Shown here: positions 14,448-45,249 of the stretch, in pieces
How the letters are laid out: every line of letters begins with the position of its first letter
Position numbering within the stretch: position 1 is the stretch's first letter
Source of the DNA: an uncultured delta proteobacterium
GTDB lineage: Bacteria > Desulfobacterota > Binatia > UBA9968
Direction of reading: 5' to 3'
Assembly (NCBI GenBank): GCA_963745035.1
Contig: CAVUVW010000013.1
Coordinates: forward strand, 1,440,001 to 1,504,000
Length of the DNA stretch: 64,000 nt
The notes under the pieces: generated by a model
Told to the model about the DNA's origin: nothing
Database searches by the model: none
What the model saw: only the letters and a program-made list of their open reading frames with translations
Program-made: the position numbers and the translations under genes

Positions 14448-17400
14448 ATGCAAACGATTTTAGGACCCTTTCATCCCGATCTGGAAAACGCTTTCGTCGA
14501 CGAAATCTTAAAATACAAGAACGCCGACTTGCTTTGCCCGCTCTTGGTGATTACACCCTCCGACTTGCTGCGCCGGCGCCTGAAAATTCTCTTGAGCCGG
14601 GAGCGGCGTCTGTCGCTGCTCAACGTTCAGCTCTTGACCTTCTACCAGCTCGCCCTCAAGCTCCAGGAAGAAAACAGCCGCGCGCCGCTCAAGCTCCGGA
14701 GCGATCTTTTTCTCGAAGAAGCGCTGCGCCAAATCATTCGGCAGCGCCAACCCGGCGCCGAGCCTTTCGCCGGCATCGAGGAGCGCGCCGGCGGCTGCGC
14801 CGCGCTGTGGCAAACCCTGCGCGATCTGCGCGACGGACTGGTCGATGCCAACGTCGCGCTCGAAGCCCTCACCGAAGGCCATTTCAGCCGGCGCGCCAGC
14901 GAGCGTACGTCGGAGTTGTTGGTCTTGCTGCGCGCGTTCCAACAGTTTTGCCGCCGACAAAACATCGCCGATCAATCCGATCTCAACCGCCGTGCCATCG
15001 AGCAAGCCCCGGCGTCGAGTTTTTTGAAGCAGTTCAGCCGGGTTTTTTATTACGGCTTTTACGACCTGACGCAGATCCAGTTGGATTTTTTTCACACCGT
15101 CGCGCGCCACTATCCCGCTACCTTGTTTTTTCCTCTCCTGACCGCCCAGCCAAAACACGACGCCTGGAGCTTCGCGGAACGCTTCTACGAGCGCTACATC
15201 CAGGGGCACAACAGCGAAGCGGCGCAAGCGCCGGCGCCGAAAACTGCCCTGCCCGCGGCGGCGCGCCTCTTCGACGAGGTCAAAGCCCGCAACTACTCGG
15301 ACTTTCCAAAGCACTGGCAATGTCGGATCACGAGCGCGTTTGGCGCCAAAGATGAAGTCGCCGTGGCGGCCAAGGAAATTCTCCGGCTCACCGAGGCCGG
15401 CGAAATACCTTTTCATGAGATCGGCGTCGTTGCCCGGAGTCTCGATTCCTACGGGCCGGCCATCCAAGACATTTTTCATCAGCACCGCATCCCGCTTGCC
15501 GGTGCTCTCGAGGAACCGCTGACGCAAGCGCCGCTGACGAAAGCGGTCATCTTGCTCTTGAATCTGCCGGCCAAAGACTTTCTGCGCAGCCAGGTGATCG
15601 ATCTGCTCTCTTCGCCCTATTTTCGATTTCAAAATATCGCTGAAAATCGGTCTTTGATCCGTCCCGATCTCTGGGATCTCGCCACCCGCGAGCTCGCCAT
15701 TTGCAAGGGCGTGGCCGAGTGGCGCCGGCTGCGCCGCTACAGCCGTCGTGACTTGGAGCTGCGGCGAATATCCGATGATGATGAGCCGCGCAAAATCCGT
15801 GTTCTTTCGGCGCAGATGATCTCGCTCGCGAATATTGTCGATATGCTGATCGCCGACCTGCTGCGCTTGCCGGAGCAAGCTTCATGGCAGGAATACGCGG
15901 CGGCCTGGAAGGTCTTGCTGGAGAAATATCTTGGCATTGCCGATGTCGAAACGTCGGCGCCGGGCATGAATTCGGAGCCCCACAAAACGATTCTCGATAT
16001 CCTGGACCAGCTCACCGGTCTCGATAGCGTCGATAACCGCGTCGCGCTCGGCGATTTTGCCCACACTTTTCAGCACTGGCTCGAACGCTCCAGCGTCGCC
16101 GCAGATCGGCGCAACATCGACGGCGTCATGGTGCTCAATGCCGCCGCGGCGCGTGGGCTGCCGTTCCGCGCGCTCTTTGTGCTCGGCATGAACGAAGGCG
16201 TTTTTCCGCGCACGATTCGCGAAGACGCCTTCCTGCGCGATCGCGACCGGGAAGTGCTCGAGCGCGATCTCGGCTACAAGGTGAGCCCGAAACTCACCGC
16301 CTTCGACGAAGAGAAATTGCTGTTCACCCTGCTCGCCGGTGCTGCGCGCGAGCGGCTCTATTGCTCGTTTCAAAGAGCGGACGAGAGCGGCAGAGCGCTG
16401 GCACCGTCCTGGTACATCGGCGAGCTCAAGCGCGCCCTCGACGATAGTGGCGGCCGATACGAAACGGTAGATATCCCGCGCAGCATCACTGAGAAAGCCG
16501 CCACCGCGCCATTCGACCGGCAAGATTTATTACTGCCGCAAGAACTGGCGATTCGCCTGACGCTCGAAGGACGCGATCCCACCGCGCTGGTCGAAGCCGC
16601 GGCTTTACTGCCGGCGCTTTACAAACAAGGACGCCAAGCCGCCGCCGCAATCGACCAAAGCGGCGACCGTCTCCTTGCGTACGACGGCGCGCTCGCCGGC
16701 TTCGACGATTACTGGAAACACTTTTCCGAGCGCGGCTTGTCACCGACCGCGCTCGAAACCTACGCCCGCTGCCCGTTTCAATTTTTCGCGCGCCACGTGC
16801 TCGGCTTGGCCCCGCTGGATCGTCCCGAAGAGGTTCTCGGACCGAGCCCCGCGGAGTTCGGCGAGTTGGGACATAAAATCTTGAACTCGTTTTACCATGC
16901 TCTGATCGACGGCGGCTACTTCGCGGGTAAAACGGCAAAAGTGGATGTGGAGTCCACGTTGCAGGGCGTTGCAGCCCAGGCCTTCGCCGACTATGAAGAA
17001 AATCATCCGATCGGTTACCCGCTCGCCTGGGAAAGCCTCAAAGAGAGTATCCTCCAACTACTGCGTCAAGTGATCGCCCAGGATGTGGCCGAGCTTGCGA
17101 ACTCCGGGTTTGCTCCCGTGAGTTTGGAAACTTCTGTGACTGCCCGTCTGCCGGCCGACTGGCCGGAGCCGCTGAAAAGCTTGGCGATCCGCGGCCGCAT
17201 GGATCGCATCGACCGTAAAGACGACGCTCTGCGGGTGATCGATTATAAGTTCAAGTTTGGCGCAAGCCCGGCGACCCAAGACAAGAACCTTGTGCGCGCC
17301 GCGCTGCGCGGCGAGCGCTTGCAGCCGCCGTTCTACTACTTGCTCGCGCAACGCTGGGCCGAGGAGCAACTCCTCAATCCATTACCGGCCGTCATCGAAG

Positions 17401-17714
17401 CGGATTTTTACTTCATCGCGCAGCGCTGGTCCGGCGGTCCGCTGGCCTCGGCAACCTACGACAGCAAAGGACTCGCCGGCAAAGCCGGCGCCGAAACCAA
17501 GCAAACCATCGCCTATCTCGCGGACGGCGTGCGCCGGGGGCGCTTCTTTATCAATCGCGGCGAGTACTGCGGCCATTGCGACGCGGCGCCGATCTGCCGG
17601 AAAAACCACCCGCCAAGCCTGTGGCGCGTTGACAGCGACCCGGTGACCGAGCCTCATCGCGCCTTGCGCAAAAAAGATCATGAAGACGATGACGACGAGC
17701 CAGACTCCGAATAA
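14448..17714 (+). CDS. addB: AddB/RexB-like helicase-nuclease subunit with PD-(D/E)xK nuclease and Fe-S cysteines
   Basis: Degenerate UvrD-like N-terminus; LSPTALETYARCPF, RGRMDRID, VIDYK, LQPPFY, CGHCDAAPIC. Confidence 0.85.
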   Translation: MQTILGPFHPDLENAFVDEILKYKNADLLCPLLVITPSDLLRRRLKILLSRERRLSLLNVQLLTFYQLALKLQEENSRAPLKLRSDLFLEEALRQIIRQRQPGAEPFAGIEERAGGCAALWQTLRDLRDGLVDANVALEALTEGHFSRRASERTSELLVLLRAFQQFCRRQNIADQSDLNRRAIEQAPASSFLKQFSRVFYYGFYDLTQIQLDFFHTVARHYPATLFFPLLTAQPKHDAWSFAERFYERYIQGHNSEAAQAPAPKTALPAAARLFDEVKARNYSDFPKHWQCRITSAFGAKDEVAVAAKEILRLTEAGEIPFHEIGVVARSLDSYGPAIQDIFHQHRIPLAGALEEPLTQAPLTKAVILLLNLPAKDFLRSQVIDLLSSPYFRFQNIAENRSLIRPDLWDLATRELAICKGVAEWRRLRRYSRRDLELRRISDDDEPRKIRVLSAQMISLANIVDMLIADLLRLPEQASWQEYAAAWKVLLEKYLGIADVETSAPGMNSEPHKTILDILDQLTGLDSVDNRVALGDFAHTFQHWLERSSVAADRRNIDGVMVLNAAAARGLPFRALFVLGMNEGVFPRTIREDAFLRDRDREVLERDLGYKVSPKLTAFDEEKLLFTLLAGAARERLYCSFQRADESGRALAPSWYIGELKRALDDSGGRYETVDIPRSITEKAATAPFDRQDLLLPQELAIRLTLEGRDPTALVEAAALLPALYKQGRQAAAAIDQSGDRLLAYDGALAGFDDYWKHFSERGLSPTALETYARCPFQFFARHVLGLAPLDRPEEVLGPSPAEFGELGHKILNSFYHALIDGGYFAGKTAKVDVESTLQGVAAQAFADYEENHPIGYPLAWESLKESILQLLRQVIAQDVAELANSGFAPVSLETSVTARLPADWPEPLKSLAIRGRMDRIDRKDDALRVIDYKFKFGASPATQDKNLVRAALRGERLQPPFYYLLAQRWAEEQLLNPLPAVIEADFYFIAQRWSGGPLASATYDSKGLAGKAGAETKQTIAYLADGVRRGRFFINRGEYCGHCDAAPICRKNHPPSLWRVDSDPVTEPHRALRKKDHEDDDDEPDSE

Positions 17715-20700
17715 GCTTGGCGATGCCGGCGATCGCCAAATCGCCGTCGCCACCTTCGACCGCAATCTCGTGGTTACAGCGGGTGCAGGCACCGGCAAGA
17801 CCACGCTGTTGATCGATCGTTTGATTCACTTGCTGCTGCGCAATCCCGAGCCGCTGAAGATTACCGAGATCGTCGCCCTGACCTTCACCAACAAAGCCGC
17901 CGATGAAATGAAGCTCAGGCTGCGCCAACGCCTGCAGGCTTTCCTCGATATCCGGCTCGACCGCGAGCCCGCCGGCGATGCCGAGGAGAAAATCAAACTC
18001 GAGGTGGAGGCGCTGATCACGCTCTATCAACTTTCCAAAGACGAATTGGACGGCCGCATCCATGACGCGCTCCGAAACGTGGAACGGAGCGATATCGGCA
18101 CGATCCACAGCTTCGCCGCCAGCCTGCTCCGCCTTTACCCGCTCGAAGCGGGCGTCGATCCGCAGTTTCACGAGGACGACGGCGCGGCCTTCGATCGGCT
18201 TTTCGATGATCATTGGGATCTCTGGATGGATCAGGAACTTTCTTTGCGCAGCCCGCACGCAGAGGACTGGCAGAAAATTCTCCCGCGCTGCCGCCTCGAT
18301 CACATCAAAGCTCTGGCTAAATCGATTGCGGCGGAACACATCGATCTTGGCAGCAATCCCAATGGATCGAACGGCGTCCCCGCCATCCTGCGCGAGTGGC
18401 TGGCCAAGCTCGATGCCAAAGCCGCCGCGCTCATCGAGCGCCATCCCGAGGACCGGCTAAACGAGAAACTCATCCGCGCCGCCCGTAATGTGATCGGCGA
18501 GTTTGGAAAACCCGGGCAGCAACTCAATCCAGCGGCGCAAGAATGCGTTTTCTTATCCGAGAAGGCGATCAGTCGAAGTACCCAAGGCTGGTCGCACGAA
18601 GACGCCACTCTGGCTCAAGAGCTCGTTCGCGCCGCCAGGGGGCTTGTTCGTGTCGACGACGAACTCACTGCCATGCTCCGGCGCTTGCTGCTCCCCTACG
18701 CCGACGATTTTCGCGAGCGCTTCATCCGCGAAGGTCATTTATCTTTTGACGGCCTGCTCGTGCGCGCACGCGATCTCGTACGCGACCAGGCGCGCGTGCG
18801 CGCCGACCTCAAGCGGCGCTACCGCGCGATTCTGATCGACGAGTTTCAGGATACAGATCCGATCCAGTATGAGATTCTCCTCTACCTGGCCGAACAAGCC
18901 GGCCAGGCGGCGAAGGATTGGCGCCGGGTAAAAGTCGCTCCTGGAAAACTCTTTGTGGTCGGCGACCCGAAGCAATCGATCTACGCTTTTCGCCGCGCCG
19001 ACATCGAAGCCTACCTCGAAGTCGTCGAAAAGATCATCAAGGCGCAGAACGGCCTCGAATGCCGGCTCACCACCAACTTTCGCAGCAATGCGGCGATCCT
19101 CGACGGGGTGAACGGCGCGTTTGAAAATCTCATCCAAGCGCAACACGGTATGCAGCCGCCCTATATCGCCATCCATCCCGCGCCCGGTCGAGCCGCCGCG
19201 CCGAGCGACTTTCCCAACCTGGTGGTGCGAAAGATCATTGCGGAGAAGGAGATCAATGCCGAAACCGCGCGCCGTCTTGAAGGCGAGAGCCTGGCGCGCT
19301 GGCTCAGGGAGCAGATCTTAGGCAAGCTCACGATTCTGAACGCGCGCGGCGAAGCGGTGTACGCTCAAGCGAAAGATGTGGCCATTCTGCTGCGCAAGCT
19401 TACCGACATCCACGATTATCTGGAGCCCCTGCGACGGCAGGGAATTCGTTACGTCGTCGAAGGCGAACGGCACTTTTATGCAGCCAAGGAAATCATCGAT
19501 GCTGTCAATTTGCTGCGCGCGGTGGAAAATCCCCACGACCGTCTGGCCCTGGTCGGCGTGCTGCGCTCGCCGCTCGGCGCCCTCACCGACCAGCAAATTT
19601 ATGAGCTGCACCGGCAAAACCTGCTCGATTATCGCGCTGGAGAAAAATTCAGCGGCGGCGATTTCCCCGCGACCCTCGTCCAGCTTTACGATGCGCTCGC
19701 CCGCTTGCACGAAGAGACCCGCACGTTACCCATCGGCGCCGCGGTCGCCCATGTCTTCGCCACCTTGCCGGTGGAGTTGCTGGCGGCTTGCTATTTTCAC
19801 GGCGAGCAGGCGGTGGCCAATCTGCAAAAGCTCGCACGACAGGCCGAGCTCCTCGGCCGTGAAGGATTGACCACCCTCAAAGAAGCGATTCGCCAACTCG
19901 AAAAGCGTGTGCTCGACGTCAAGGATGAAGGCGAGAGCGTGCTCGCCGAAGAGAACCTCGACGCCGTGCGCATCATGAGCATACACAAAGCCAAAGGCCT
20001 GGAGTTTCCGATCGTCATTTTGGCCGGCTGCCAGAGCGGCATCGAAGGCGCGCGCAACGCCGATGCCGAAGCGATGTTCGATTGGTCGACAGGCCTCACG
20101 GGTCTGCGCATCGGGACGATTACGGATCTCGCCGGGCTTTACATCGCGGAGAAATCCCGGCTCCGAAGCGCCGAGGAACAAAAGCGCCTGCTCTACGTCG
20201 CGATGACGAGGGCGAGAGAAAATCTGATCATCTCCTGCGCGCCGGGCAGCCGGCGCGCAAACGGCAGTTTCCTCTCCATGCTCGACGGCACGCTCGACGA
20301 TCGCATCAGCGCCGCCGAATCATCGCAGATCATTTCCCTCGGCCGCGGCACCATAGCCGTCGAAGTCGTGAGCGAGAACTTGACCGCGCCGCGCGGCGCT
20401 CGAGCCAAAACCGCCGGCGCGAAGCAAAAACACGATTGGCAGCCGTTTATCGACACCTGGGCGCGCCGCGCCGCGGCCTATGAGAAAGCGCGGCAATCGG
20501 CGCCGTTTCTCACGCCGACCCAACTCAAACGGCAAGAAGAAGCATTGACCGAAGCCGGCGACCAGATGATCAAGGAACCCTACCGCCAAAGCCCGGCGCT
20601 CGTCGTCGGCGATCTGGCGCACCGGTTTCTACAAAGCTGGGACTTTGGCGCCGATCGAAAAGCTTTCGAGCGCCCGCTTCTTGATTTGATCACGCCAGGC

Positions 20701-21109
20701 GCTGCCGGCGGAATTCGCCGCATCCCGCCGGGAAATTGAAGCAGACCTTCAAGATATTTTTCGCGCTTTCTTTCGCTCGAAGACGTACACCGACATCGCG
20801 CAGTCGGAGATCCTCGGCCGCGAAGTGCCGCTTGTCATGCCCTGGAACGGCCAGGTCATGGAAGGCGTAATCGATCTGATCTACCAGCGAAACGGCTTGC
20901 TTTATCTCGCCGACTATAAGACTGATCGAATCGAAAAAAAGCGTTTGAGCGAAACCGCCGCTCGTTATCACCGACAAGCGGAGATCTATTCACAAGCCGC
21001 GCGCCAGAGTCTTGGACGAGAGCCGGCCGGCTTCAAGATTATTTTTCTCCGTCTCGGCGAAAGCGTTGAGATCGGCGCAGGAAAAAATCAGCAATTGGCG
21101 CTGCTTTGA
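17680..21109 (+). CDS. addA: AddA/RexA UvrD-type helicase-nuclease (frameshifts near 20690-20780)
   Basis: AGAGTGKT, LTFTNKAA, IDEFQDT, VGDPKQSIYAFR, MSIHKAKGLEF, LLYVAMTRA; nuclease EGVIDLI...ADYKT in 20825..21109. Confidence 0.9.
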
Positions 21110-21117
21110 GGAGTATC

Positions 21118-21723
21118 ATGCGAATCTGTTTTTTTGATATCGAAACCGTTCCCACCGACCGCTCTCTACAAGAAAACGGCTTGCTCGAGCCGCAAATCCA
21201 GCTCAACGAAGCTGATCTCATCAAAAAACTCAGCCTCTCCGCCGCCACGGCGAAGATTCTTTGCATCGGTTACGCCATCGAGCCGCCGGTGGATTCTGAA
21301 GTCCAAGTGTTGGAGGGCGAAGAAACCGAGATTATCAAAAGCTTTTGGCAACTGGCCGCCGACTGCGAGCTCTTCGTCGGCCACAATATTTTGGATTTCG
21401 ACTTGCGCTTCATCTACCAGCGCTCGGTCATTCATCAGATCAAGCCCTCGCGCGACCTCCCGTTTGCGCGTTTTCGCAACGCGCCGATCTTCGACACCAT
21501 GCAGGAATGGAGCAAGTGGGGTCGCGAGCACGCGAGTCTCGATCTGCTGTCGAAAACTTTCGGTCTACCCTCGCCGAAAGAGAGCCTCGACGGCTCAAAG
21601 GTCTATCCCTATTACCGTACGGGAAAATTCGCCGAGATCGCCAACTACTGCAAGTGCGACGTCGATTCGGTGCGTCAAGTTTATCGCTGGCTTACGTTTA
21701 CGAAAATGCCGGGGCCGGCTTAG
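21118..21723 (+). CDS. DEDDy 3'-5' exonuclease (PolB exonuclease-like, RNase H fold)
   Basis: FFDIET (ExoI), GHNILDFD (ExoII), YCKCDV (ExoIII). Confidence 0.85.
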   Translation: MRICFFDIETVPTDRSLQENGLLEPQIQLNEADLIKKLSLSAATAKILCIGYAIEPPVDSEVQVLEGEETEIIKSFWQLAADCELFVGHNILDFDLRFIYQRSVIHQIKPSRDLPFARFRNAPIFDTMQEWSKWGREHASLDLLSKTFGLPSPKESLDGSKVYPYYRTGKFAEIANYCKCDVDSVRQVYRWLTFTKMPGPA

Positions 21724-21881
21724 AAATACTTTCACGCGAGACATTTGTCTCCTCGCTCGATCTCACGTTTGACTCCCCGTTCGCCAATCTATAATAATTG
21801 ATGCAATCCGCTGGGCTTGAGCATTACGGCGTCACGCCGCATCGTAGATTCCAAAAAGATCGAGGAGGACAAGGAGACATT

Positions 21882-23078
21882 ATGGATCATCCTGCTGAGC
21901 AAAATTTCAAGGAACCGACAGACAAAAAGACCCGGGCCGGCTATGGAAAATTCCTTCGCCCCAACACGCCCTATGACAACTTCATGGAGGCCCAGGGCAT
22001 TCCGATTTATCGCGACATCGGTGTGCGCCGGGTGCAGGATCTGCCACGCAAACCGTGGAAGCGCATGGGCGGCAGCGGCACGTTCATCCAGTTGCTTGGC
22101 ACCGAAGGCCTCTGGGGTTCCTACGTCGTCGAAGTTCCCGGCGCCGGCGCGCTCAATCCCGAAAAGCATCTCTACGAAGAGCAGTATCTCGTCGTCGACG
22201 GCCGCGGTACGACCGAGGTTTGGGTTGACGGCAATCCCAAGAAGGTCACATTCGAGTGGCAGAAAGGTTCGATCTTCGCCATTCCGATGAATGCTACCCA
22301 TCGCATCGTCAATGCGACGTCCAGCCCGGCGCTCTTGCTCGCCGGGACGACGGCGCCCAACGTGATGAACAACTTTGACCACGAAGAATTTATCTTCAAT
22401 TGCCCTTATCATTTCAAAAATCGTTTCGATCCCAGCGACGACTACTACAAGTACAAAGAAGAAGTGACGCCGGATCCGCTTCGCGGTCTCGCCATGCGCC
22501 AGACGAATATTATTCCCGACGTCATGTCCTGCGAGTTGCCCATGGATAACCGCCGCTCGCCGGGTTATCGCCGCATCGAACCGCACATGGCGGGACAGCA
22601 ATTCTACATGTGGATCGGCCAGCACGAGACAGGCCGTTACTCGAAGGCGCACGCGCACGGTTCCGCTGCGGTGCTGATTTGCTTGAGCGGCAAAGGCTAC
22701 ACCTACACCTGGCCGTCAGAATTGGGTACTCACCCTTGGGAAAAAGGCACGACGGAACAAATCAGACGCCAGGACTACGAACCGGTGGGGATGGTCAGCG
22801 CGGCACCGATGAGCGGCAACTGGTTCCACGCTCATTTCGGAGCGAGCAAAGAACCGTTGCGTCTCACCGCCTGGTTCGGACCCAATGCGCCGGGACGCGA
22901 TCGGGGCAAGCCTGGTGAAAAGGGCATCGACTACGGCGCCATCGACATGAAAGACGGCGGCACAGCGATCCCGTACAACGAAGAAGATCCGTACCTGCGC
23001 AAAGAGTTCGAGGAGACGCTGGCAGCCGTCGGCGCGCAATCGCGCATGGAGCCGGAGCTCTACAAGCACTCCTACTAA
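21882..23078 (+). CDS. Bicupin protein of unknown function
   Basis: Two cupin motif sets: EKHLYEEQYLVVDGRG...IPMNATHRIVN and KAHAHGSAAVLICLSGKG...NWFHAHFG; AGGAG RBS. Confidence 0.8.
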   Translation: MDHPAEQNFKEPTDKKTRAGYGKFLRPNTPYDNFMEAQGIPIYRDIGVRRVQDLPRKPWKRMGGSGTFIQLLGTEGLWGSYVVEVPGAGALNPEKHLYEEQYLVVDGRGTTEVWVDGNPKKVTFEWQKGSIFAIPMNATHRIVNATSSPALLLAGTTAPNVMNNFDHEEFIFNCPYHFKNRFDPSDDYYKYKEEVTPDPLRGLAMRQTNIIPDVMSCELPMDNRRSPGYRRIEPHMAGQQFYMWIGQHETGRYSKAHAHGSAAVLICLSGKGYTYTWPSELGTHPWEKGTTEQIRRQDYEPVGMVSAAPMSGNWFHAHFGASKEPLRLTAWFGPNAPGRDRGKPGEKGIDYGAIDMKDGGTAIPYNEEDPYLRKEFEETLAAVGAQSRMEPELYKHSY

Positions 23079-23104
23079 GAACACTGTCCAGCGTCTCGCG
23101 TCTC

Positions 23105-23132
23105 GTAGGGGCGACCGGTCGGTCGCCCCTAC
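23105..23132. repeat. GTAG-type REP-like palindrome
   Basis: GTAGGGGCGACC-ggtc-GGTCGCCCCTAC; related copy at 52759. Confidence 0.7.
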
Positions 23133-23176
23133 CTGTTACATGAGACGAAAACTCGAATCCCCATCAAAGGACTTTC

Positions 23177-24661
23177 ATGGCCACCGCACCGCGAGGCTCG
23201 TTTTCCAACGCCAACCGCCACATGCAGGAGGAGGAAAATCTTCAGCTCACCAGCGTGGGCGTCGATATCGGTTCCTCGACTTCGCATCTGGTTTTCTCCC
23301 GATTGGAGTTGACCCTGGAAGGTTCGCGCTATCGCGTCACCAAGCGCGATGTGCTGAACGAATCGGAAATTCTTCTGACCCCTTATGTCGACGACACTCG
23401 GATCGATGTTGAGGCATTGGAAAGCTTTATCAACGAGCAATACAAAAAGGCCAAGATCAAGCGCGAGGATGTCGACACCGGCGCGCTGATTCTCACCGGA
23501 GTCGCCGTTAGACGGCGCAACGCGCGCGCGATTGCGGAACTGTTTGCGGAAGAAGCCGGCAAGTTCGTCGCCGTGAGCGCAGGCGATGGCTTGGAGGCGA
23601 CGATGGCCGCGCATGGCTCGGGAGCGGTGGCGCATTCGGCAAAGATGGGCGGGGTTGTGCTGAATATCGATATCGGCGGCGGCACCAGTAAGTTCGCGAT
23701 CTGCAACAACGGCAAGGTTCAGGAGGTCTCCGCCATCGACATCGGCGCCCGCCTCCTCGCTTTCGATAAAAACGGCTCAGTCGTGCGCATCGAAGAAGCC
23801 GGCCGCAAGCACAGCGCTTGGGCGGGATTTTCAGTCGCCCTCGGCGACAAAATCCCTGAGGGGGACTTGCGCGCTATGGCTTCGGGAATGGTGGATAAGC
23901 TGTTTACCATCCTGAAACCGGATTCCATCACCGAAGACATCAAAGATCTCCTGCGTCTGCCGCCGCTCACCTATCAAGGCGAGATCGACTGCGTGATGTT
24001 TTCCGGCGGCGTGTCAGAATTCATCTACAATCGAGTCAAGACGAGCTTCGATGATCTCGGCCCTTTGATCGCCGAGGAAGCGCACAAGCGTGCCGGCGAT
24101 CTGGGTTTGCTCGTGATGGAGCCCAACGCCCGCATTCGCGCCACCGTCATCGGCGCTTCGCAGTACACGGTGCAAGTAAGCGGCAATACGATTTTCATCG
24201 CACCGGACGACGCCGTGCCGGTGCGAAACGTGGCGGTGGTCGCTCCGGAGTTTCCGCTAAACCAGGATGAGTTTACCAAAGACGCCGTGCGCGACGCGCT
24301 GCTCAACGCACTGCGGCGCTTAGATCTGCTGCACGGCAGGCAGCCCGTGGCCGTGGCTTTTCATTGGGACGGCTCGGCGACGTTTCACCGCTTGCAGGCT
24401 TTCTGTAGCGGCGTTGCGGAAGGCCTTAAAGACATTTTCGCCAAGGGTCATCCGCTTGTGCTCGTCAACGATGGAGACATCGGCGGCATTGTCGGACTGC
24501 ACTTCCAGGAGGAGCTGCAGATGCAAACGCCGATCATCTCTACCGACGGCATCGCGCTCAGCGACTTCGACTATATCGACATCGGCGCGCTGATTCCGTC
24601 GTCCGGCGCCGTGCCGGTGGTCATCAAATCGCTGATCTTCCCCGCCTCGCCACAGCAGTAA
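23177..24661 (+). CDS. eutA: EutA-family reactivating factor homolog (ASKHA-type ATPase)
   Basis: SVGVDIGSSTSHLVFSRL, TGALILTG...RNAR, AGDGLEATMAAHGSGA, LNIDIGGGTS, IRATVIGA, VPVVIKSLIFP resemble EutA motifs along the full length. Confidence 0.85.
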   Translation: MATAPRGSFSNANRHMQEEENLQLTSVGVDIGSSTSHLVFSRLELTLEGSRYRVTKRDVLNESEILLTPYVDDTRIDVEALESFINEQYKKAKIKREDVDTGALILTGVAVRRRNARAIAELFAEEAGKFVAVSAGDGLEATMAAHGSGAVAHSAKMGGVVLNIDIGGGTSKFAICNNGKVQEVSAIDIGARLLAFDKNGSVVRIEEAGRKHSAWAGFSVALGDKIPEGDLRAMASGMVDKLFTILKPDSITEDIKDLLRLPPLTYQGEIDCVMFSGGVSEFIYNRVKTSFDDLGPLIAEEAHKRAGDLGLLVMEPNARIRATVIGASQYTVQVSGNTIFIAPDDAVPVRNVAVVAPEFPLNQDEFTKDAVRDALLNALRRLDLLHGRQPVAVAFHWDGSATFHRLQAFCSGVAEGLKDIFAKGHPLVLVNDGDIGGIVGLHFQEELQMQTPIISTDGIALSDFDYIDIGALIPSSGAVPVVIKSLIFPASPQQ

Positions 24662-28090: not shown

Positions 28091-28570
28091 TCAAGTCGCG
28101 GCGGCTTTGAGTTTCTCTTGCGCGGCGCGAACGGCGCGGAGAATGTCCGCATAACCGGCGCAGCGGCAGAGATTACCCGCGAGATACTCGCGGACTTCAT
28201 CGTCCGAAGGGCGGGGATTCTCGTCGAGCAGTGCTTTGACCGCCAAGACGAAGCCCGGCGTACAATAAGCGCACTGGAGCGCCCGCTCGGCCACGAACGC
28301 CTGCTGAATCGGATGGAGCGACTGTCCATCGCCAAGGCCTTCAAGAGTGGTGATCTCGTGGCCGCCCGCGCGGGCCGCGAGCAAAAAGCACGAGCTCACC
28401 GGATGCCCGTCCAGGAGTACCGTGCAGCTGCCGCACGCGCCGACCCCGCAGCTTTCGCGCACGCTCCAGAGCTTGAGCCCATCGCGCAAAACTTCGAGCA
28501 GCGTATCGGCATCGTCGATACCTAATTTTTCATCGCAGCCGTTTACCCTAAGCGTAATTTCGCGCTTCAT
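28091..28570 (-). CDS. CoxS/XdhC-type (2Fe-2S) small subunit of a molybdenum hydroxylase
   Basis: SCGVGACGSCTV, QCAYCTPG, GNLCRCAGY. Confidence 0.92.
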   Translation of the reverse strand: MKREITLRVNGCDEKLGIDDADTLLEVLRDGLKLWSVRESCGVGACGSCTVLLDGHPVSSCFLLAARAGGHEITTLEGLGDGQSLHPIQQAFVAERALQCAYCTPGFVLAVKALLDENPRPSDDEVREYLAGNLCRCAGYADILRAVRAAQEKLKAAAT

Positions 28571-28599
28571 TTCGTCGGTTCTTTAACTAGGGCGGCACT

Positions 28600-29463
28600 T
28601 CAGGCCGTGCCATTGTGTAACTGATCAAGCGCTTTCTGCACGAATAGTCGCGCCATGCGCCGTTTGTACCATTCCGAACCACGCAAGTCCGAGAACGGGG
28701 AAATTTGCTGATCGAGCAAGTCAAGGACTCGTTCAGTTACTCCCTGGTCGAGGATTTGATCCTTGGCGAATTCCAGACCGCCGATCGATACCGGTGTTGC
28801 CGCCACACCGCCGAGCGCGACGCGCAATTCTTTGCACCGCCCGCTTTCTCTTGCAAGAAATCCGGCCACTCCCAAGCACGGCCAATCGTTTGCGGATAGC
28901 GCGGTGTAGCGCAGGTAAACCGCCCGGCTATTCTCCTGCGTGAAAGGAATTTTCACGTCGACCAAGATCTCTCCCGGCGCCAAAGCGGTCTCGTACATTC
29001 CCCGAAAAAAATTCCTTATGGGAATAGTTCGGGCGCCCTGGGGACCGAAGACGTTGATCTCAGCGTTGAGCACGAGCAACGCCGGCGGTGGATCGAGGCG
29101 GTAGTCGGCATGCGCAAGATTGCCGCCCACCGATGCGGTCTGGCGCACCCGCACGTTGCCGATGTGACCGAAGGCTTGGGCCAGTGCGGGGAATGACTGG
29201 CGAATCAATGGCGAAGTCTCGACCATGCGATGACTGGCGAGCGCGCCGATGCGCACGCCGTCAGTCTCGTTGTCGATGCCGGCCAAGCCAGGGATCGATT
29301 GAAGATCGACCAGGTAGCGATAATGCAGCGCGCGCTGCTTCATCAAAATAACCAGCGTCGTGCCGCCGGCGATCACGCGGCTTTCGTCGCCATGCTTCTG
29401 CAAAAGTTCGACGGCTTCGTGCAGCGAGCGCGGCTGGAGCAGATCAAAAGAACGAATCGTCAT
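28600..29463 (-). CDS. CoxM/XdhB-type FAD-binding medium subunit
   Basis: IAGGTTL, IGNVRVRQTASVGGNLAHA, SDLRGSEWYKR. Confidence 0.92.
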   Translation of the reverse strand: MTIRSFDLLQPRSLHEAVELLQKHGDESRVIAGGTTLVILMKQRALHYRYLVDLQSIPGLAGIDNETDGVRIGALASHRMVETSPLIRQSFPALAQAFGHIGNVRVRQTASVGGNLAHADYRLDPPPALLVLNAEINVFGPQGARTIPIRNFFRGMYETALAPGEILVDVKIPFTQENSRAVYLRYTALSANDWPCLGVAGFLARESGRCKELRVALGGVAATPVSIGGLEFAKDQILDQGVTERVLDLLDQQISPFSDLRGSEWYKRRMARLFVQKALDQLHNGTA

Positions 29464-31864: not shown

Positions 31865-32987
31865 ATGAGCGCTTCCGTTAAAGAGATTGTTGACGCATAT
31901 GCCGCAGGCCCCTTAGCCGAGGCCTCCACGCCGCCCTCATCCTGGTACACCGAACCTGCCATTTTGGATCTCGAACAGCGCGCGGTATTTCCGCGCTCGT
32001 GGCAGTTTGCTGCTCGCACGGAGCAGGTGACCGAGTCCGGGCGCTACGTCACCGGCGACATCGCCGGCGAGCCGGTGCTGATTGTCCGCGGCAGGGACAA
32101 TATATTGCGCGCTTTCTTCAATGTCTGCCGTCATCATGCTGCTGCGATCCTCACACAAGCTGAAGGAACGGCTAGACAATCTTCGCTGTCCCTATCATGG
32201 TTGGACCTACGATCTCGAAGGCAATCTCGTATTGGCGCCCGAATTTGGCGGCGTCACGAATTTCGACCGAGCCGCCCACGGCCTGGCTCCGATGCAGAGT
32301 CGGTGTCTGGAAAAGTTGGGTGTTCGCGAAGCCGCACGCCGGCGATCCGTCTCTCGAAGATTTTCTTGGCAAAGATCTCCTTGAACGTTTTGAGCCCTTG
32401 AACCTTGAGCAATTAAGATGGTTCGAGCGCCGGTCCTATTTTCTGAACTGCAATTGGAAAGTGTTCGTCGACAACTATCTCGACGGCGGTTATCACGTGC
32501 CGCACATCCACGGCGGCTTGAACAGCGTGCTCGATTACAGCAATTACACGATCGAAACCGGCGAGCGCTTTTGCCTGCAATCGAGTCCCGTCGCAACCGA
32601 TAACGGAGAGGCGAAAACCGCGGCGGTACGAACCGGAACACGAGCCTATTATTACTGGATCTATCCGAACTTCATGATCAACATCTACGACGGCGTGATG
32701 GACACCAATCTCGTTATTCCGCGCGGCGTCGACAAAACCGAAGTCATTTTCGATTACTATTTCGCCGATGTCTCGCAACGAGGCACGGGAAAAGAATCTC
32801 GCCAGTATCTCGGTAAGCGAGCAGATCCAGAGCCGAAGACGTCGCCATTTGCGAGTCGGTCCAGCGCGGACTCAACTCGCGCGCATATTCAACCGGACGC
32901 CTTTCGGTTCGCCGCGAGGCCGGCGAGCATCTTTTCCACAGGCTTTTGCACGCCGATCTACAAAGAGGTCTTCAGTCGTTGCCGTAA
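31865..32987 (+). CDS. Rieske non-heme iron oxygenase alpha subunit (choline monooxygenase/CntA-like), frameshifted
   Basis: NVCRHH, RCPYHGWTY, NWKVFVDNYLDGGYHVPHIH, found across frames. Confidence 0.85.
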
Positions 32988-33007
32988 TATCGTCTTCAGG
33001 GGTGAAC

Positions 33008-33554
33008 ATGCAAAACAAATATCAAGAGCAATTCGGCTACCCGATTCCTCGCACGGCCGGAAAAGTCCGACCATTTATGGCCGAGTGGATTCAGGAGTTC
33101 ATTCGGCACTCGCCATTCTGTGTCATGGCAACGAGCAGTAGCGAGGGCGATTGCGACGCTTCACCCAAAGGCGGGCACGCCCGGCTTCGTGAAAGTCTTA
33201 AACGACAAGCAATTGTTCATTCCCGACGTCGCCGGCAATAAGCTCTTCCACGGCTACAGCAACATCGAGAGCAATCCGAAAGTCGGCTTGATTTTTCTTA
33301 TTCCCGGCCACAACCAAACCGTGCGGGTGAATGGCAGGGCCAAAGTGATCGGCAACGCCAAGCTAGCCGATGTAAAACTGGAAGTGCACAATCCCGACGA
33401 AAAAGCGGAAGTCCTGCAAGGATTGCTGCTCGATGTCGAGGAATCCTACAGCCACTGCCCGAGAGCGCTCAAGTTCTCCAAACTCTGGGACGTGGAAGAA
33501 ATTTCAAAAAATATCGCACAGCCGCCGCTGCCGCCCAAAGAGCCGGGAATCTAA
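33008..33554 (+). CDS. Pyridoxamine 5'-phosphate oxidase-like FMN-binding protein (frameshift near 33175)
   Basis: FIRHSPFCVMAT, CDASPKGG, IPDVAGNKL, NPKVGLIFLIPG, YSHCPRAL. Confidence 0.85.
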
Positions 33555-36424: not shown

Positions 36425-36614
36425 TGCGATTACCTCCGTGCGAATGGATGCCGTCGTCTTCCTATATTCCAGTTGTGCGCGTGGTTTCAAGCAGTGTTTT
36501 GCCAACCCGTCCGGATCAAGGTAGAATTCCTCTGCAATTGTCAGAATGTTATTCTGAGGCGCAGCCGAAGACTCTGCTTTTCGTAAGCCAGTCTTGATAT
36601 CGAAGGATTTCGCG

Positions 36615-37573
36615 ATGCCACCAAAAATTTACATCGACGGCCAGGCGGGAACGACGGCGCTACGTGTTCGCGACTGGCTGGCGGGCCGGAAAGATCTCGA
36701 GGTCGTAACTCTTCCTGAAGAGCTGCGCAAAGATCCCGCCGCGCGCAAAAAAGCGCTTCAGGATGCCGCGATCGTACTTCTTTGCCTGCCGGACGACGCA
36801 TCACGCGAAGCCGCGGAGTGGCTGGCCGACTTCCCCGTCAGAATTCTCGATGCCAGCACCGCGCATCGCGTCACAGAAGGTTGGACCTATGGCCTGCCGG
36901 AGCTACTTGCCGGGCAGCGGGAGCAGATCGCTAAATCCCAACGCGTGGCGAATCCCGGCTGCTATGCCTCGGCCGTCGATTTTGCTCGTGCGGCCGCTTG
37001 GTCGACGCCGGTTTACTTTCTACGGACACGCCGCTCGCCATTCACGCGCTCTCCGGTTACTCGGGCGGTGGCCGTTCCATGATCGAGCGCTGGGAAGATC
37101 CCAAGGGTGGTTTGCCTAAGCTTCCTCACGAAGCGCCTTACAGCATCGGCAAGCTGCACAAACATATCCCGGAAATCATGCGCCATGGCGCGCTCAGCGT
37201 GGAACCACAGTTTCTACCCAACGTCGGCCCCTTTCGCTGCGGCATGCGCGTCGAGATCATGGTTCCGGCCAAGTTGCGGCTAAAATCGGGCAGCGGCAAA
37301 GCCATGTGGGAGATATTGTCGGCGCGCTACGAAAAGGAAATGTTCGTCCGAGTCGAAGAGCTAACGGACGCGGGCGAATCAGACGAATTCAGCTTCGATC
37401 CGCAGGCTCATAATAATACCAACGTAATATCGCTGCGCGTACTGCCCCATCAGTCCGGCCACATCCTGCTGATGGCCCGGCTCGATAACCTCGGCAAAGG
37501 CGCTGCCGGCGTAGCGATTCAGAACTTGAATCTCATGCTTGGCGTCCCGGAAGACACCGGCTTGCCGCGATGA
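36615..37573 (+). CDS. argC: N-acetyl-gamma-glutamyl-phosphate reductase (type 2), frameshift near 36980
   Basis: IYIDGQAGTTAL, LDASTAHR, VANPGCY, SGYSGGG, LDNLGKGAAG. Confidence 0.93.
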
Positions 37574-42458: not shown

Positions 42459-43813
42459 TCAGGTTATGATTCGCCTCGCGTTTTTTAGAACGGCATCGAT
42501 CATCTGAGCGCTTTGCCCGAGATAATTTTCCGGCTGAGCCAGCTTGCTCCAGTCTATCGTGCCGTCGGCGACGTGTCCTTTCGCTCAATCGCTGGACGGA
42601 TTTCGATCAACGGCCTATTCTCGGTCGTAGCGGCGGCACACGCTTGCTTGACCAATTCTTCGGCCTTCGGCCGCGGCATGACGCCGGCCAGCGCAAAGAC
42701 CGCGGACTCGGCTAGAATGACATCGTTGGCCTTCGCTATGTTGGCGCGCATCGCCGCCGCGTCCACTTGCAGATTCTGCGCAAGGTAGAGCGCGTGCTTG
42801 AGCGCGCCGCCGGTGAGCAGAATCATTTGCGGCAGAGTCAGCCACTCCACCTGCCAGCCGTGCGTGGCGCGCTCGTGTTCCTGAATCTGCGCTTGGTGCA
42901 TGGCCGACAAAAGCGCCGCATTGGTCCGCGCCGCGGCGAGGATCAATTCGCTCGTGATTGGATTGGATTTCTGCGGCATCGTGCTGCTGCCGCCGCGCCC
43001 CGTCTCTGCCGATTCGCCGGCTTCACCGACTTCGGTTTGCGCCAGGAGAATGATGTCCTGCGCCATCTTGCCGAGGCTTCCGGTGACCAGGCTCAACCAG
43101 CCGGCAAACTCGGCGATGCTGTCGCGCTGCGCATGCCAGGGCATCACGGGAACATTCAATTTGAGCTCCTTCGCGAGTTCATGAGCCACGCGCAAGCCCT
43201 TGTCGCCCAGGGCCGCCAAAGTGCCGGCAGCGCCGCCGAACTGAAGGACCAGCAGGCGTGGCGAGATCTCCACGAGCCGTTCGGCGTGTCTAACCAGCGG
43301 CGCGATCCAACTCGCAACCTTCAAGCCGAACGTGATAGGGAGAGCCTGCTGCCCGTGCGTTCGTCCTGCGAGCACAGTATCCCGATGACGGTCGGCCAGA
43401 TCGCTCAAATGCCGCGCGATCTCGCCGAGCCGCGATCGCAGAACTTTTATCGCTGAGCGCACCTGCAAAACGCAGGCTGTGTCCATGATGTCCTGCGTCG
43501 TCGCGCCCCAATGAATATAGGGTGCCGCCTCGGCGCCAACCTGTTTCCGCAGCTCTTGGACCAGAGCGATGATCGGAAAGCCGGAACGCACGGTGCCGTG
43601 CGTCAATGCCGCTAGCTCGACTTTGTCTGCGTCGACTTTAGCGATCTGCTCCGCCGCTTTGGTTGGGATGACGCCCACACGCGCTTCTGCGCGTGCCAAC
43701 GCGACCTCGACTTCGACCAGAGCGCGGACCAGTGCCGCATCGCTCAGCAAAGCGGCTATTTCTTCGTCAGTGAACAGCGGCTTGAAGATCGCTGAATCGA
43801 GAGGCGTTGCCAT
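42459..43813 (-). CDS. pcaB: 3-carboxy-cis,cis-muconate cycloisomerase (C-terminal frameshifts)
   Basis: IHWGATTQD, GRTHGQQA, QFGGAAGTL, GGSSTMPQKSNP; true C-terminus PENYLGQS in another frame. Confidence 0.9.
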
Positions 43814-43925
43814 CTGAATTGTGAGCTATGAAAGCAAACCCTTCGCGGAGCTTAACCTGAGCACAGCCGAAGGATTCAGGATGACAGAGTTTGCCATGCT
43901 GAACACCGCGAAGCATCCGCTTTTC

Positions 43926-43958
43926 ATCACTCCATTACTCCAACGCTCCAACGCTCCA
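43926..43958. repeat. Octamer array (nnnCTCCA x4)
   Basis: atcactcc attactcc aacgctcc aacgctcc between pcaG and pcaB. Confidence 0.75.
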
Positions 43959-43969
43959 GTCCTAAGAGC

Positions 43970-44539
43970 TTACATATCAAAGAAAACCGTCTCGTCTTCT
44001 CCCTGGAGCCGGATATCAAAACTGTAAACCGTTTTGTCGTGGTCCATTCCGGGCACCGCAATCAAAGTCTGACGGCGTTTCTTGTTCTTGATTGAACTCA
44101 AAACCGGATCATTCTCGTTGGCGGCCTCATCACCGAAGTATATGCGCGTATACGCGTGCAGGAGCATGCCGCGCGCAAAGACGACCACGTTGATGTGCGG
44201 CGCCTGCACAGTCCCATCAGGGCCAGGCACTGGACCGGGCTTGATAGTTTCGAAGCTGTAAACGCAATTGTCGTCGGTGCCCGACCTTCCCCACCCGATG
44301 AACGTCACGTCGAGCGGTTTCTCCTGCTTATCGTCAGGATGATTGTAGCGCCCATAACTATTGGCTTGCCAAATCTCCACCATCGTATCCGGAATAGGCT
44401 TGCCGTCGCCGTCGAACACGCGTCCCTCGATGCGGATACGTTGGCCCTCCGTAGCATCGTTCACCAGGACATTCATGGTCTTGCTCGTAAGCCCGATGGA
44501 ATAGAACGGCCCGACTGTCTGAGAAGGAGTCTGCTTCAT
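43970..44539 (-). CDS. pcaG: Protocatechuate 3,4-dioxygenase alpha subunit
   Basis: QTPSQTVGPF, EIWQAN, QAPHINV, FDIRLQGEDETVFFD. Confidence 0.95.
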   Translation of the reverse strand: MKQTPSQTVGPFYSIGLTSKTMNVLVNDATEGQRIRIEGRVFDGDGKPIPDTMVEIWQANSYGRYNHPDDKQEKPLDVTFIGWGRSGTDDNCVYSFETIKPGPVPGPDGTVQAPHINVVVFARGMLLHAYTRIYFGDEAANENDPVLSSIKNKKRRQTLIAVPGMDHDKTVYSFDIRLQGEDETVFFDM

Positions 44540-45249
44540 GCCCGCTGGTCCTCGAACGGCGTCGCCTGGCGTCCGCGCAGCACGATGTCGAAGCGATAAC
44601 CCAATGCGAATTCAGGTTCGGTGACGTCCTGCGCATAGGACGCAATCAATCTTTGCCGCCCGCTTTTGCTCGGAATCGAGTTCAGGATCGGGTCCAGCGG
44701 GATCAACGGATCGCCCGGAAAGAAAAACTGGGTCACCAGACGCGTGACAAAGCTTGGACCGAACAAAGAGAGATGAATGTGCGCCGGCCGCCACGCGTTG
44801 GCATGGTTGAGCCAGGGATAAGCCCCGGGCTTGATCGTCAGAAAGCGGTACTCACCCTGTTCGTTGGTCACGCAGCGGCCGGCGCCGATGAAATTCGGGT
44901 CGAGCGGCGCATTGTGCTGGTCCACCGGATGTCGGTAGCGACCCGCCGCGTTGGCTTGCCATATCTCAATGACGCTGTTCGGCACGGGCCGCTCATCTTC
45001 ATCCATCACTCGGCCCACGACGATGATGCGTTCCCCGAGCGCCTCCTTGCCGGCATCGTCGCGCGAAAGATCGTTCTCACCCGGTTCCAGCTTCACATCG
45101 GCAAATAGCGGACCGGTGATCTCAGAGAGCGTCTGTTTGATAGGCACGAGCCTCTTGAGCGGCCCGCGCTTCACGGACGAGCCATAAGCCGCGAAAACAT
45201 ACGGAGGATGAGATTTCCGATCCAGCGATTTGTATTGTGGTATTTGCAT
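44536..45249 (-). CDS. pcaH: Protocatechuate 3,4-dioxygenase beta subunit
   Basis: SEITGP, WQANAAGRYRH, KPGAYPW, WRPAHIH iron ligands. Confidence 0.95.
   Translation of the reverse strand: MQIPQYKSLDRKSHPPYVFAAYGSSVKRGPLKRLVPIKQTLSEITGPLFADVKLEPGENDLSRDDAGKEALGERIIVVGRVMDEDERPVPNSVIEIWQANAAGRYRHPVDQHNAPLDPNFIGAGRCVTNEQGEYRFLTIKPGAYPWLNHANAWRPAHIHLSLFGPSFVTRLVTQFFFPGDPLIPLDPILNSIPSKSGRQRLIASYAQDVTEPEFALGYRFDIVLRGRQATPFEDQRA

Follow-up and report, generated by a model that had tools for sequence, protein, structure and literature searches.

A EutA-family ATPase encoded beside a bicupin: conserved linkage and a candidate role at a cupin metal centre

The only member of the EutA family known to have been characterised acts on a protein: EutA releases damaged cobalamin from ethanolamine ammonia-lyase. 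Other metal enzymes have accessory proteins too: UreG, HypB, CooC and the COG0523 proteins belong to the P-loop GTPases or ATPases, and catechol 2,3-dioxygenase is reactivated by the ferredoxin XylT; none of these accessory proteins is an ASKHA ATPase. Histidine-rich tails are borne by HypB and UreE. In gentisate dioxygenases, the catalytic Fe(II) is bound by three histidines of the N-terminal barrel. Here, a stretch of 64,000 nucleotides from an uncultured member of the Binatia (assembly GCA_963745035.1, contig CAVUVW010000013.1, positions 1,440,001 to 1,504,000; referred to below as the window) was analysed with respect to two neighbouring genes, which encode a bicupin and a EutA-family ATPase. 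The pair is conserved across phyla, has been duplicated as a unit and co-diverges, and the possibility is considered that the ATPase services the metal centre of the bicupin.

Conservation and co-divergence of the gene pair

The bicupin gene (21882..23078, + strand; 398 aa) starts with an ATG at position 21882, just downstream of a GGAGGA-type ribosome-binding site (GGAGGACAAGGAGA), and is followed on the same strand, after a spacer of 98 nt, by the ATPase gene (23177..24661, + strand; 494 aa). Among 41 genomes of the genus and order, 37 encoded a EutA-like protein at least 62% identical to the window ATPase (all except G010, G021, G022 and G033). A bicupin match of at least 71% identity was located directly upstream, on the same strand and 31–251 nt away, in 36 of these 37 genomes, the single exception (G020) being cut at ATPase residue 61. 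Counts over the related genomes include G005; when this genome is left out, adjacency is seen in 35/36. Within the genus, the bicupin orthologues were 90–97% identical.

The same arrangement recurred among paralogues. In four complete genomes, a bicupin paralogue lay directly upstream at 15 of the 20 EutA-like loci, and the identities to the window pair fell in step (bicupin/ATPase: 75/65, 52/55, 41/42, 29/41 and 28/38%). Four of the five unpaired loci belonged to one conserved clade beside DUF4175 and TPR genes, and the fifth lay beside an Opp-type ABC transporter. For a scan across phyla, one genome per GTDB species was searched with an alignment of 18 EutA-like proteins, yielding 574 confirmed stretches, of which the best 80 were kept; this choice biases the sample toward the orthologue clade of the window protein. 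These best 80 loci came from Binatia, Dehalococcoidia/SAR202, other Chloroflexota and Alpha-, Beta- and Gammaproteobacteria, their carriers including Aromatoleum toluclasticum ATCC 700605 and Ensifer sp. IC3342. A bicupin was present within 400 nt upstream at 52 of the 76 loci that had at least 1300 nt of upstream sequence, and a truncated bicupin was found there in three of the four loci with less; at five further loci of the best 80, the bicupin stood one or two genes off, or downstream. Measured from the bicupin stop, the aligned part of the ATPase began after a median of 100 nt (range 9–299; 69 pairs). Pairwise identities of the two partners were correlated with a Pearson r of 0.93 (68 pairs; none of 999 Mantel permutations as high), a mirror-tree value that is inflated by shared species history; beyond that history, the paralogue pairs within single genomes show that the modules were copied whole.

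Further EutA-like loci were noted in passing. A second module of a bicupin and a EutA-like gene lies outside the window in the source genome (C13:445087-447829; loci L003-L005), its EutA-like gene being split over three frames (frameshifts or assembly errors); an EamA-type transporter gene and another bicupin paralogue (C13:442041-443213) are found downstream of it. At five proteobacterial loci (L068, L074, L079, L088 and L097), a second, histidine-rich EutA-like gene (38–40% identical) was located a few kb from the first. The gene order is reversible, with a diverged bicupin about 300 nt downstream of the second EutA-like gene at L068 and farther downstream, on the same strand, at L088. A third EutA-like clade (C13:1683288-1684868, locus L001; also L017, L023, L028 and L032), 44–46% identical to the window ATPase, has histidine-rich N- and C-termini and never stands beside a bicupin. 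Its neighbours in all four complete genomes encode a DUF4175 protein and TPR proteins, and a 4Fe-4S ferredoxin-like gene lies nearby in the source genome (G000) and at L023.

The spacer between the two genes contains a 28-nt palindrome (GTAGGGGCGACCGGTCGGTCGCCCCTAC; 23105..23132, no strand assigned), and the folding energy of the whole 98-nt spacer was -39.6 kcal/mol (z -4.3; none of 200 shuffled sequences as stable). The 12-nt half-site of the palindrome has 11 copies in the 7.4-Mb genome, and because every copy lies within the same palindrome, 'REP hairpin' (for repetitive extragenic palindrome) is a fair label. The GC-rich consensus of the spacer copy and the 10 other sites is GTAGGGGCGACCGG(C/T)CGGTCGCCCCTAC. 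The element thus looks like a REP-type repeat of this lineage, with nothing special to this locus. No run of T residues follows the palindrome on its 3' side, and a terminator scan gave no terminator-like sites between the genes or just after them. A promoter-like site (21769..21798, + strand; TTGACT, 18 nt, AATAAT) lies 84 nt 5' of the bicupin start and agrees with the consensus at 10 of 12 positions; as two such sites were obtained in the 4.3 kb scanned and 2.0 are expected by chance, it is a weak lead only. Contigs from metatranscriptome libraries (four libraries from four studies) cover both genes in part, some of them with 0–1 mismatches (for example 22285-22435, 23105-23247 and 23177-23366). 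Such contigs do not in themselves prove transcription, and because none of them bridges the bicupin stop and the ATPase start, they are silent on co-transcription. The two genes probably form a single functional unit, an operon, in which the hairpin may favour the output of bicupin over that of ATPase, as would suit an enzyme and its helper. The first-pass annotation of the window had described a co-oriented pair about 100 nt apart with a REP hairpin between them, encoding a bicupin of about 400 aa with two His-containing cupin motifs and a full-length EutA homologue with both phosphate loops; all of these features were recovered here and, for the proteins, are detailed below.

Predicted properties of the two proteins

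Residues 23–488 of the 494-aa ATPase were aligned with positions 2–474 of the 475 positions of the Pfam EutA profile (PF06277; E 2.9e-116; 389.6 bits, cut-off 27), and the protein is on this gathering score a full-length member of the EutA family. It shares 33% identity with E. coli EutA (b2451) over 483 residues (E 6e-65). With the NCBIfam EutA equivalogs NF007991-NF007994 it scored 323, 251, 219 and 198 bits against cut-offs of 598, 769, 952 and 799, and by all four models it falls outside canonical EutA. A FastTree phylogeny of 105 EutA-like proteins, with E. coli EutA as the root, put the window ATPase among 19 Binatia sequences that form a well-supported clade and are all paired with a bicupin; E. 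coli EutA stood outside all others on a long branch. Identity, model scores and branching agree in separating the protein from canonical EutA, but a tree made by a fast method with one canonical EutA does not establish how canonical and bicupin-linked EutA proteins are related.

Both phosphate loops (VGVDIGSSTSH and NIDIGGGTSK) are present and were invariant in 41 relatives, as were D30, G32, D165, G167-G169, T170 and S276-G278 in the 41-sequence alignment. The protein thus combines the phosphate-1, phosphate-2 and adenosine motifs with the duplicated RNase-H-like core of an ASKHA ATPase. In its AlphaFold2 model (predicted local distance difference test, pLDDT, 85.8), the ASKHA core (residues 22-332) is followed by a C-terminal alpha/beta domain. 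The top structural rows were Ppx/GppA phosphatases at Z 14.6-17.6 (3cer_A: Z 17.6, root-mean-square deviation (rmsd) 3.9, 255 residues aligned), followed by FtsA/PilM, HgdC-type activators and kinases at Z 11–14; the diol dehydratase reactivase 2d0o_A was matched with Z 11.0 (rmsd 4.0, 242 aligned). The modelled fold does not decide between an ATPase that acts on a protein and a kinase. A sequence search of the PDB with the ATPase gave weak Ppx/MreB matches only, and no EutA structure was returned by either the sequence or the structure searches. No invariant or near-invariant Cys column was found in the EutA-like alignments A2 (18 sequences) and A3 (41 sequences); a BcrAD/HgdC-type iron-sulfur activator, which would need a conserved Cys for a bridging [4Fe-4S] cluster, was ruled out for this protein.

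The window ATPase is extended at its N-terminus by 22 residues, which include a peptide conserved within its clade; E. coli EutA, aligned from its residue 5 onwards, has no such extension. This acidic peptide reads GSFSNANRHMQEEE in the window protein and GGRVFFSNxxRSLEEEDE in proteobacteria. The shared pattern FSNxxR...EE(D/E)E (window 23177-23251), ahead of the ASKHA core, stands where sister clades bear histidine-rich tails, and may represent a docking or regulatory segment. The N- and C-terminal tails of those sister clades are rich in histidine and aspartate (for example HDQHSHSHEGSHGHSHDHDE): at least three His were counted in the N-terminal tail of 21/102 EutA-like proteins and in the C-terminal tail of 8/102, and the 22/102 proteins with such a tail at either end are all at most 46% identical to the window protein. 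The window ATPase itself, with one His in its 25 N-terminal residues and none in its C-terminal tail, does not have the histidine-rich tail of a metallochaperone. Its relatives are deposited under the name 'ethanolamine ammonia-lyase reactivating factor EutA', which thousands of database entries carry.

For the bicupin, Pfam detected the N-terminal cupin alone (Cupin_2, residues 85-153, E 4.4e-9; Cupin_1 likewise on the first barrel). The AlphaFold2 model, built on an alignment of 59 homologues (pLDDT 93.8, predicted template modelling score 0.91), contains two double-stranded beta-helix barrels, each with a cupin motif, and the protein is on this model a bicupin. The N-terminal barrel (22134..22340, + strand; residues 85-153) holds the putative ligands E94, H96, E100 and H140 in the arrangement E94-x-H96-x3-E100...H140, and the C-terminal barrel (22614..22871, + strand; about residues 245-330, model strands 243-332) holds H257-x-H259...H316-x-H318. 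The first-barrel ligands were retained in 57-64 of 69 EutA-paired bicupins and less well in the 14 unpaired paralogues of the source genome (E94 in 4/14, H140 in 8/14). In the second barrel, H316 and H318 were found in 69/69 paired bicupins and in 14/14 unpaired paralogues, H257 and H259 in 67/69 and 65/69 paired bicupins and both in 14/14 unpaired paralogues.

Structural comparison of the bicupin model with VIA-align returned bicupin structures at Z 15.6-20.1 overall, headed by gentisate 1,2-dioxygenase 3bu7_B (Z 20.1, rmsd 5.8, 291 aligned) and salicylate 1,2-dioxygenase 2phd_A (Z 19.6, rmsd 4.0, 271 aligned). E. coli gentisate dioxygenase 2d40_A followed at Z 18.5, and oxalate decarboxylase 5hi0_A, at Z 18.4, was within tie range of the dioxygenase rows. 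Foldseek was less informative and gave generic bicupins only (TM score about 0.45, rmsd about 10), a protein-atlas search gave cupin clusters without names only, and the PDB sequence search gave no match. The sole NCBIfam match was to 5-aminosalicylate dioxygenase (17 bits against a cut-off of 650). Membership of the gentisate 1,2-dioxygenase family was rejected on sequence (10-11% identity to the structural rows) and on the placement of the site. On the model, the bicupin is a metal protein whose fold resembles that of gentisate dioxygenases but which stands outside their family, and it is probably a metal-dependent enzyme acting on an aromatic or carboxylated substrate.

The bicupin family is large, with 264 clusters at E <1e-30 and 957 at E <1e-10 (clustering at 50% identity). 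The source genome has 16 full-length bicupin paralogue matches (26 when fragments are counted), and five genomes of Dehalococcoidia/SAR202 have 15-28 matches each. Up to 85 first-look candidates per genome were seen in Binatia (genomes checked for expansion: G025, G027, G029 and G041-G045). To our knowledge, this multiplication of paralogues has not been described in either group.

Candidate client of the ATPase and competing explanations

Complex prediction with the ATPase and the bicupin gave a score of 0.52 (0.52, 0.53 and 0.51 in the individual runs), compared with 0.00 for the best of three controls; the pLDDT of the partners was at least 77, and the runs shared at least 91% of contacts. 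In the calibration of this score, the pass mark was reached by 116/157 solved complexes and 2/215 mismatched pairs, and 18/157 solved complexes, together with both passing mismatches, passed with scores of at most 0.60. The pair thus passes clear of its controls, in the weak band.

In our estimation the chances are about even that the ATPase is a helper dedicated to the bicupin, using ATP to mature or reactivate its metal centre, and forms one unit with this dioxygenase-like protein. By the logic established for EutA, the ATPase would bind the bicupin, and ATP binding and hydrolysis would open it; in the opened state, a metal ion would enter or be exchanged, or whatever had inactivated the protein (an oxidised metal, a wrong metal or a tightly bound product) would be released. 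The ATPase would then mature or reactivate the metal centre of a cupin, and would not be a B12 reactivase. Action on the bicupin protein is suggested by the family precedent, by the copying of the modules as wholes, by the histidine- and aspartate-rich tails of the sister clades and by the weak pass of the complex. The first-pass annotation had already proposed a client other than ethanolamine ammonia-lyase, plausibly the bicupin, or else a small-molecule kinase activity in the same pathway; the genomic side of the first proposal is upheld by the adjacency, the co-divergence, the separation from canonical EutA and the failure to find eutBC, and the mechanism is what we infer.

Several observations weigh against a role of the ATPase at the bicupin metal centre. 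An adjacent bicupin was missing at 24/76 testable loci, mostly from Dehalococcoidia, where genes for an aldo/keto reductase, for histidine phosphatases (one or two) and for an amidase come after the ATPase gene and a major facilitator superfamily (MFS) transporter is encoded divergently; the remaining unpaired loci are from some Alphaproteobacteria, with an alpha/beta hydrolase gene downstream of the ATPase. Most bicupin paralogues, conversely, lack an adjacent ATPase: the source genome has its 16 full-length matches against three EutA-like loci, and the 15-28 matches per genome in Dehalococcoidia are mostly without a neighbouring ATPase. A histidine-rich tail is missing from the window ATPase and from every orthologue in its clade (identity of 49% or more), so that the hint of a metallochaperone is borrowed from paralogous clades. 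The ATPase model is closer in fold to Ppx/GppA phosphatases than to the diol dehydratase reactivase of known structure. Shared species history raises the mirror-tree correlation, as described above, and the complex score lies in the weak band. The ATPase–bicupin partnership is not obligatory in cis. As five Dehalococcoidia genomes with an unpaired ATPase still encode a 59-60% identical bicupin elsewhere, action in trans is possible and these loci do not refute the partnership.

The strongest competitor is a role of the EutA-like protein as a small-molecule kinase, or as some other ATP-dependent substrate activator, in the catabolic pathway of the bicupin, the two proteins co-diverging through a shared substrate and not through contact. 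The ASKHA fold is common to many kinases, and pantothenate, N-acetylhexosamine and levoglucosan kinases were matched at Z 11-12.7. Histidine-phosphatase genes just downstream of the ATPase in eight loci, all from Dehalococcoidia/SAR202, would suit a route of phosphorylation followed by dephosphorylation. These phosphatase neighbours and the unpaired loci leave the kinase explanation real weight. It sits less well with the only characterised family member, which acts on a protein, with the repeated duplication of the module as a unit and its tight co-divergence, with a complex prediction that passes, weakly, while its controls score nothing, with the histidine-rich tails of sister clades, which have no obvious role in a kinase, and with the bicupin encoded elsewhere in genomes that lack the adjacency. 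On balance, we consider a kinase unlikely, at roughly one case in five.

Less probable still, and in our view quite improbable, is that the bicupin and the ATPase are subunits of one ATP-dependent enzyme, catalysing an ATP-coupled ring transformation or a BcrAD/HgdC-like electron activation, with the ATPase engaged in every turnover. A weak match to Pfam BcrAD_BadFG (29.5 bits, under the cut-off of 31.5) and the structural rows 4eht_A (Z 13.6) and 9gai_C (Z 13.8), from 2-hydroxyacyl-CoA dehydratase activators and a benzoyl-CoA reductase subunit, point in this direction, and co-divergence and the complex score would fit equally. However, the 18 or 41 aligned EutA-like proteins lack the invariant Cys for a bridging [4Fe-4S] cluster, many close bicupin paralogues do without an adjacent ATPase, and a strong intergenic hairpin would not suggest equimolar subunits.

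Genes for a cobalamin-dependent client were searched for throughout the source genome (7.4 Mb, 92.6% complete, 28 contigs). EutB, EutC and bacterial microcompartment shell proteins gave no matches there, and the E. coli control genome was matched; EutB was likewise not found in any of 41 related genomes, 22 of them of high quality (0/40 without G005), in a search that again matched the E. coli control. Glutamate mutase E was looked for in the source genome without a match; the large subunit of diol dehydratase gave none either, but the control genomes were equally blank for it. The claim of the first-pass annotation that eutB, eutC, microcompartment shell, diol dehydratase and cobalamin genes are absent from the window can accordingly be extended to the whole genome for the first three, and holds within the window for B12-binding domains, seven of which were matched, all outside it; its diol dehydratase part rests on a search that was blank in controls too. 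That the ATPase is an ordinary B12-enzyme reactivase with its client encoded elsewhere and the bicupin a mere neighbour, as its database name and the seven B12-binding matches might suggest, is disfavoured and very improbable, since no EutB was found in 41 genomes that each have at least two EutA-like matches, the source genome gave no match for EutC or glutamate mutase E, every B12-binding match lies more than 70 kb from the EutA-like loci, and the bicupin adjacency is conserved and co-diverging.

A wider generalisation is that most EutA-family ATPases, rather than being B12 reactivases, make up a broad class of ATP-driven 'openers' of metalloenzymes, with a large family of aromatic-catabolism bicupins as their main and so far undescribed clients, each ATPase setting or restoring the metal of its own bicupin (its identity or redox state), and canonical EutA as a specialised offshoot. 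This we hold to be doubtful, though worth stating: if true, it would describe the first ASKHA-type metal-centre chaperone or reactivase.

Genomic surroundings and comparison with known systems

Beyond the genus, conservation is confined to the pair. The genes that flank it in the window (AddB, AddA, an exonuclease, a histidine kinase and a 278-aa open reading frame (ORF) that matched no family) were seen again in 5-7 close loci only. The AddB-type and AddA-type helicase-nuclease genes (window 14448-21723 region) overlap each other by 35 nt; after them come a PD-(D/E)XK fragment ORF of 94 aa (20825-21109) and a PolB-like 3'-5' exonuclease gene (21106-21723). Across about 100 loci, the recurrent neighbours of the pair were Amidohydro_2 (20), amidase (15), ABC exporter (14), TctC (14), alpha/beta hydrolase (13), Rieske/LigXa-type oxygenase (10), solute-binding protein (8), histidine phosphatase (8), UbiD (7) and MFS (7), and CoxS-type and molybdopterin subunits were found near the pair in 6-7 of them. 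Of roughly 240 neighbour proteins scanned with Pfam, one was a NicO nickel transporter (L085), and the recurrent neighbour clusters contained no gene of the CooC, HypB or UreG type, so that a link to nickel is not supported in this sample. In two Binatia genomes, a paralogous pair stands last in an operon that encodes Rieske/LigXa, LigB-type dioxygenase, Amidohydro_2, bicupin and ATPase.

The region of the window is itself rich in genes of aromatic catabolism, since it also carries pcaG, pcaH and pcaB (protocatechuate 3,4-dioxygenase alpha/beta and 3-carboxy-cis,cis-muconate cycloisomerase; 42554-45249), a subunit of a Rieske-type, ring-hydroxylating oxygenase (32197-33141) and CoxS/CoxM-like genes (28091-29463). 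A glyoxalase-type dioxygenase gene is also present in the window. The neighbours suggest catabolism of aromatic or carboxylated compounds, and this context does not identify the particular substrate. Elsewhere in the window, argC (N-acetyl-gamma-glutamyl-phosphate reductase; 36594-37573) is spread over two frames that overlap (36594-37082 and 36998-37573), each of which matches half of the family model, indicating a frameshift or a sequencing error.

A description of the EutA-like/bicupin pairing was not found in the literature searched, which did not cover subscription journals. The EutA of PMC4334477 is an unrelated ectoine-utilisation protein.

Where no lyase gene is found, the name 'ethanolamine ammonia-lyase reactivating factor EutA' is probably wrong. 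If the ATPase does service the bicupin, this would be a new route of maturation or repair for a non-haem metal enzyme, and the reactivase principle would extend beyond cobalamin. The bicupins concerned form a large and unstudied family that occurs in clusters resembling those for the catabolism of lignin-derived aromatics, in abundant uncultured lineages of soil and ocean (Binatia, SAR202). The question is directly testable in the cultured carriers, A. toluclasticum ATCC 700605 and Ensifer sp. IC3342.

Compared with described systems, the window ATPase is closest to EutA, to which it is homologous from end to end, with the same ASKHA phosphate loops and C-terminal domain; it differs in that its genome and the relatives searched gave no eutBC or microcompartment genes and that its fixed neighbour is a bicupin. 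With DdrAB/GdrAB (PDB 2d0o), which serves as the mechanistic template, it would share the principle of an ASKHA-type ATPase that frees its client of a dead cofactor. The structural match to that system is distant, however, a gene for the small beta subunit is absent here, and the proposed client is not a B12 enzyme. The bicupin resembles gentisate and salicylate 1,2-dioxygenases (3bu7, 2phd, 2d40), which were its best rows over nearly the whole length, and its context is like that of aromatic catabolism. Unlike gentisate dioxygenases, it has its His-x-His...His arrangement in the C-terminal barrel, and its N-terminal barrel carries E-x-H...E...H. UreG, HypB, CooC, the COG0523 metallochaperones and XylT provide the parallel of a helper that attends solely to the metal centre of a single enzyme; in comparison with the metallochaperones, the window protein is an ASKHA ATPase without a histidine-rich tail, the tails of HypB and UreE finding their counterpart in the sister clades. 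Among these systems, the bicupin-linked ATPase would best be placed as a non-B12 form of the EutA-reactivase kind, a position for which the linkage gives support and the mechanism is one that we infer.

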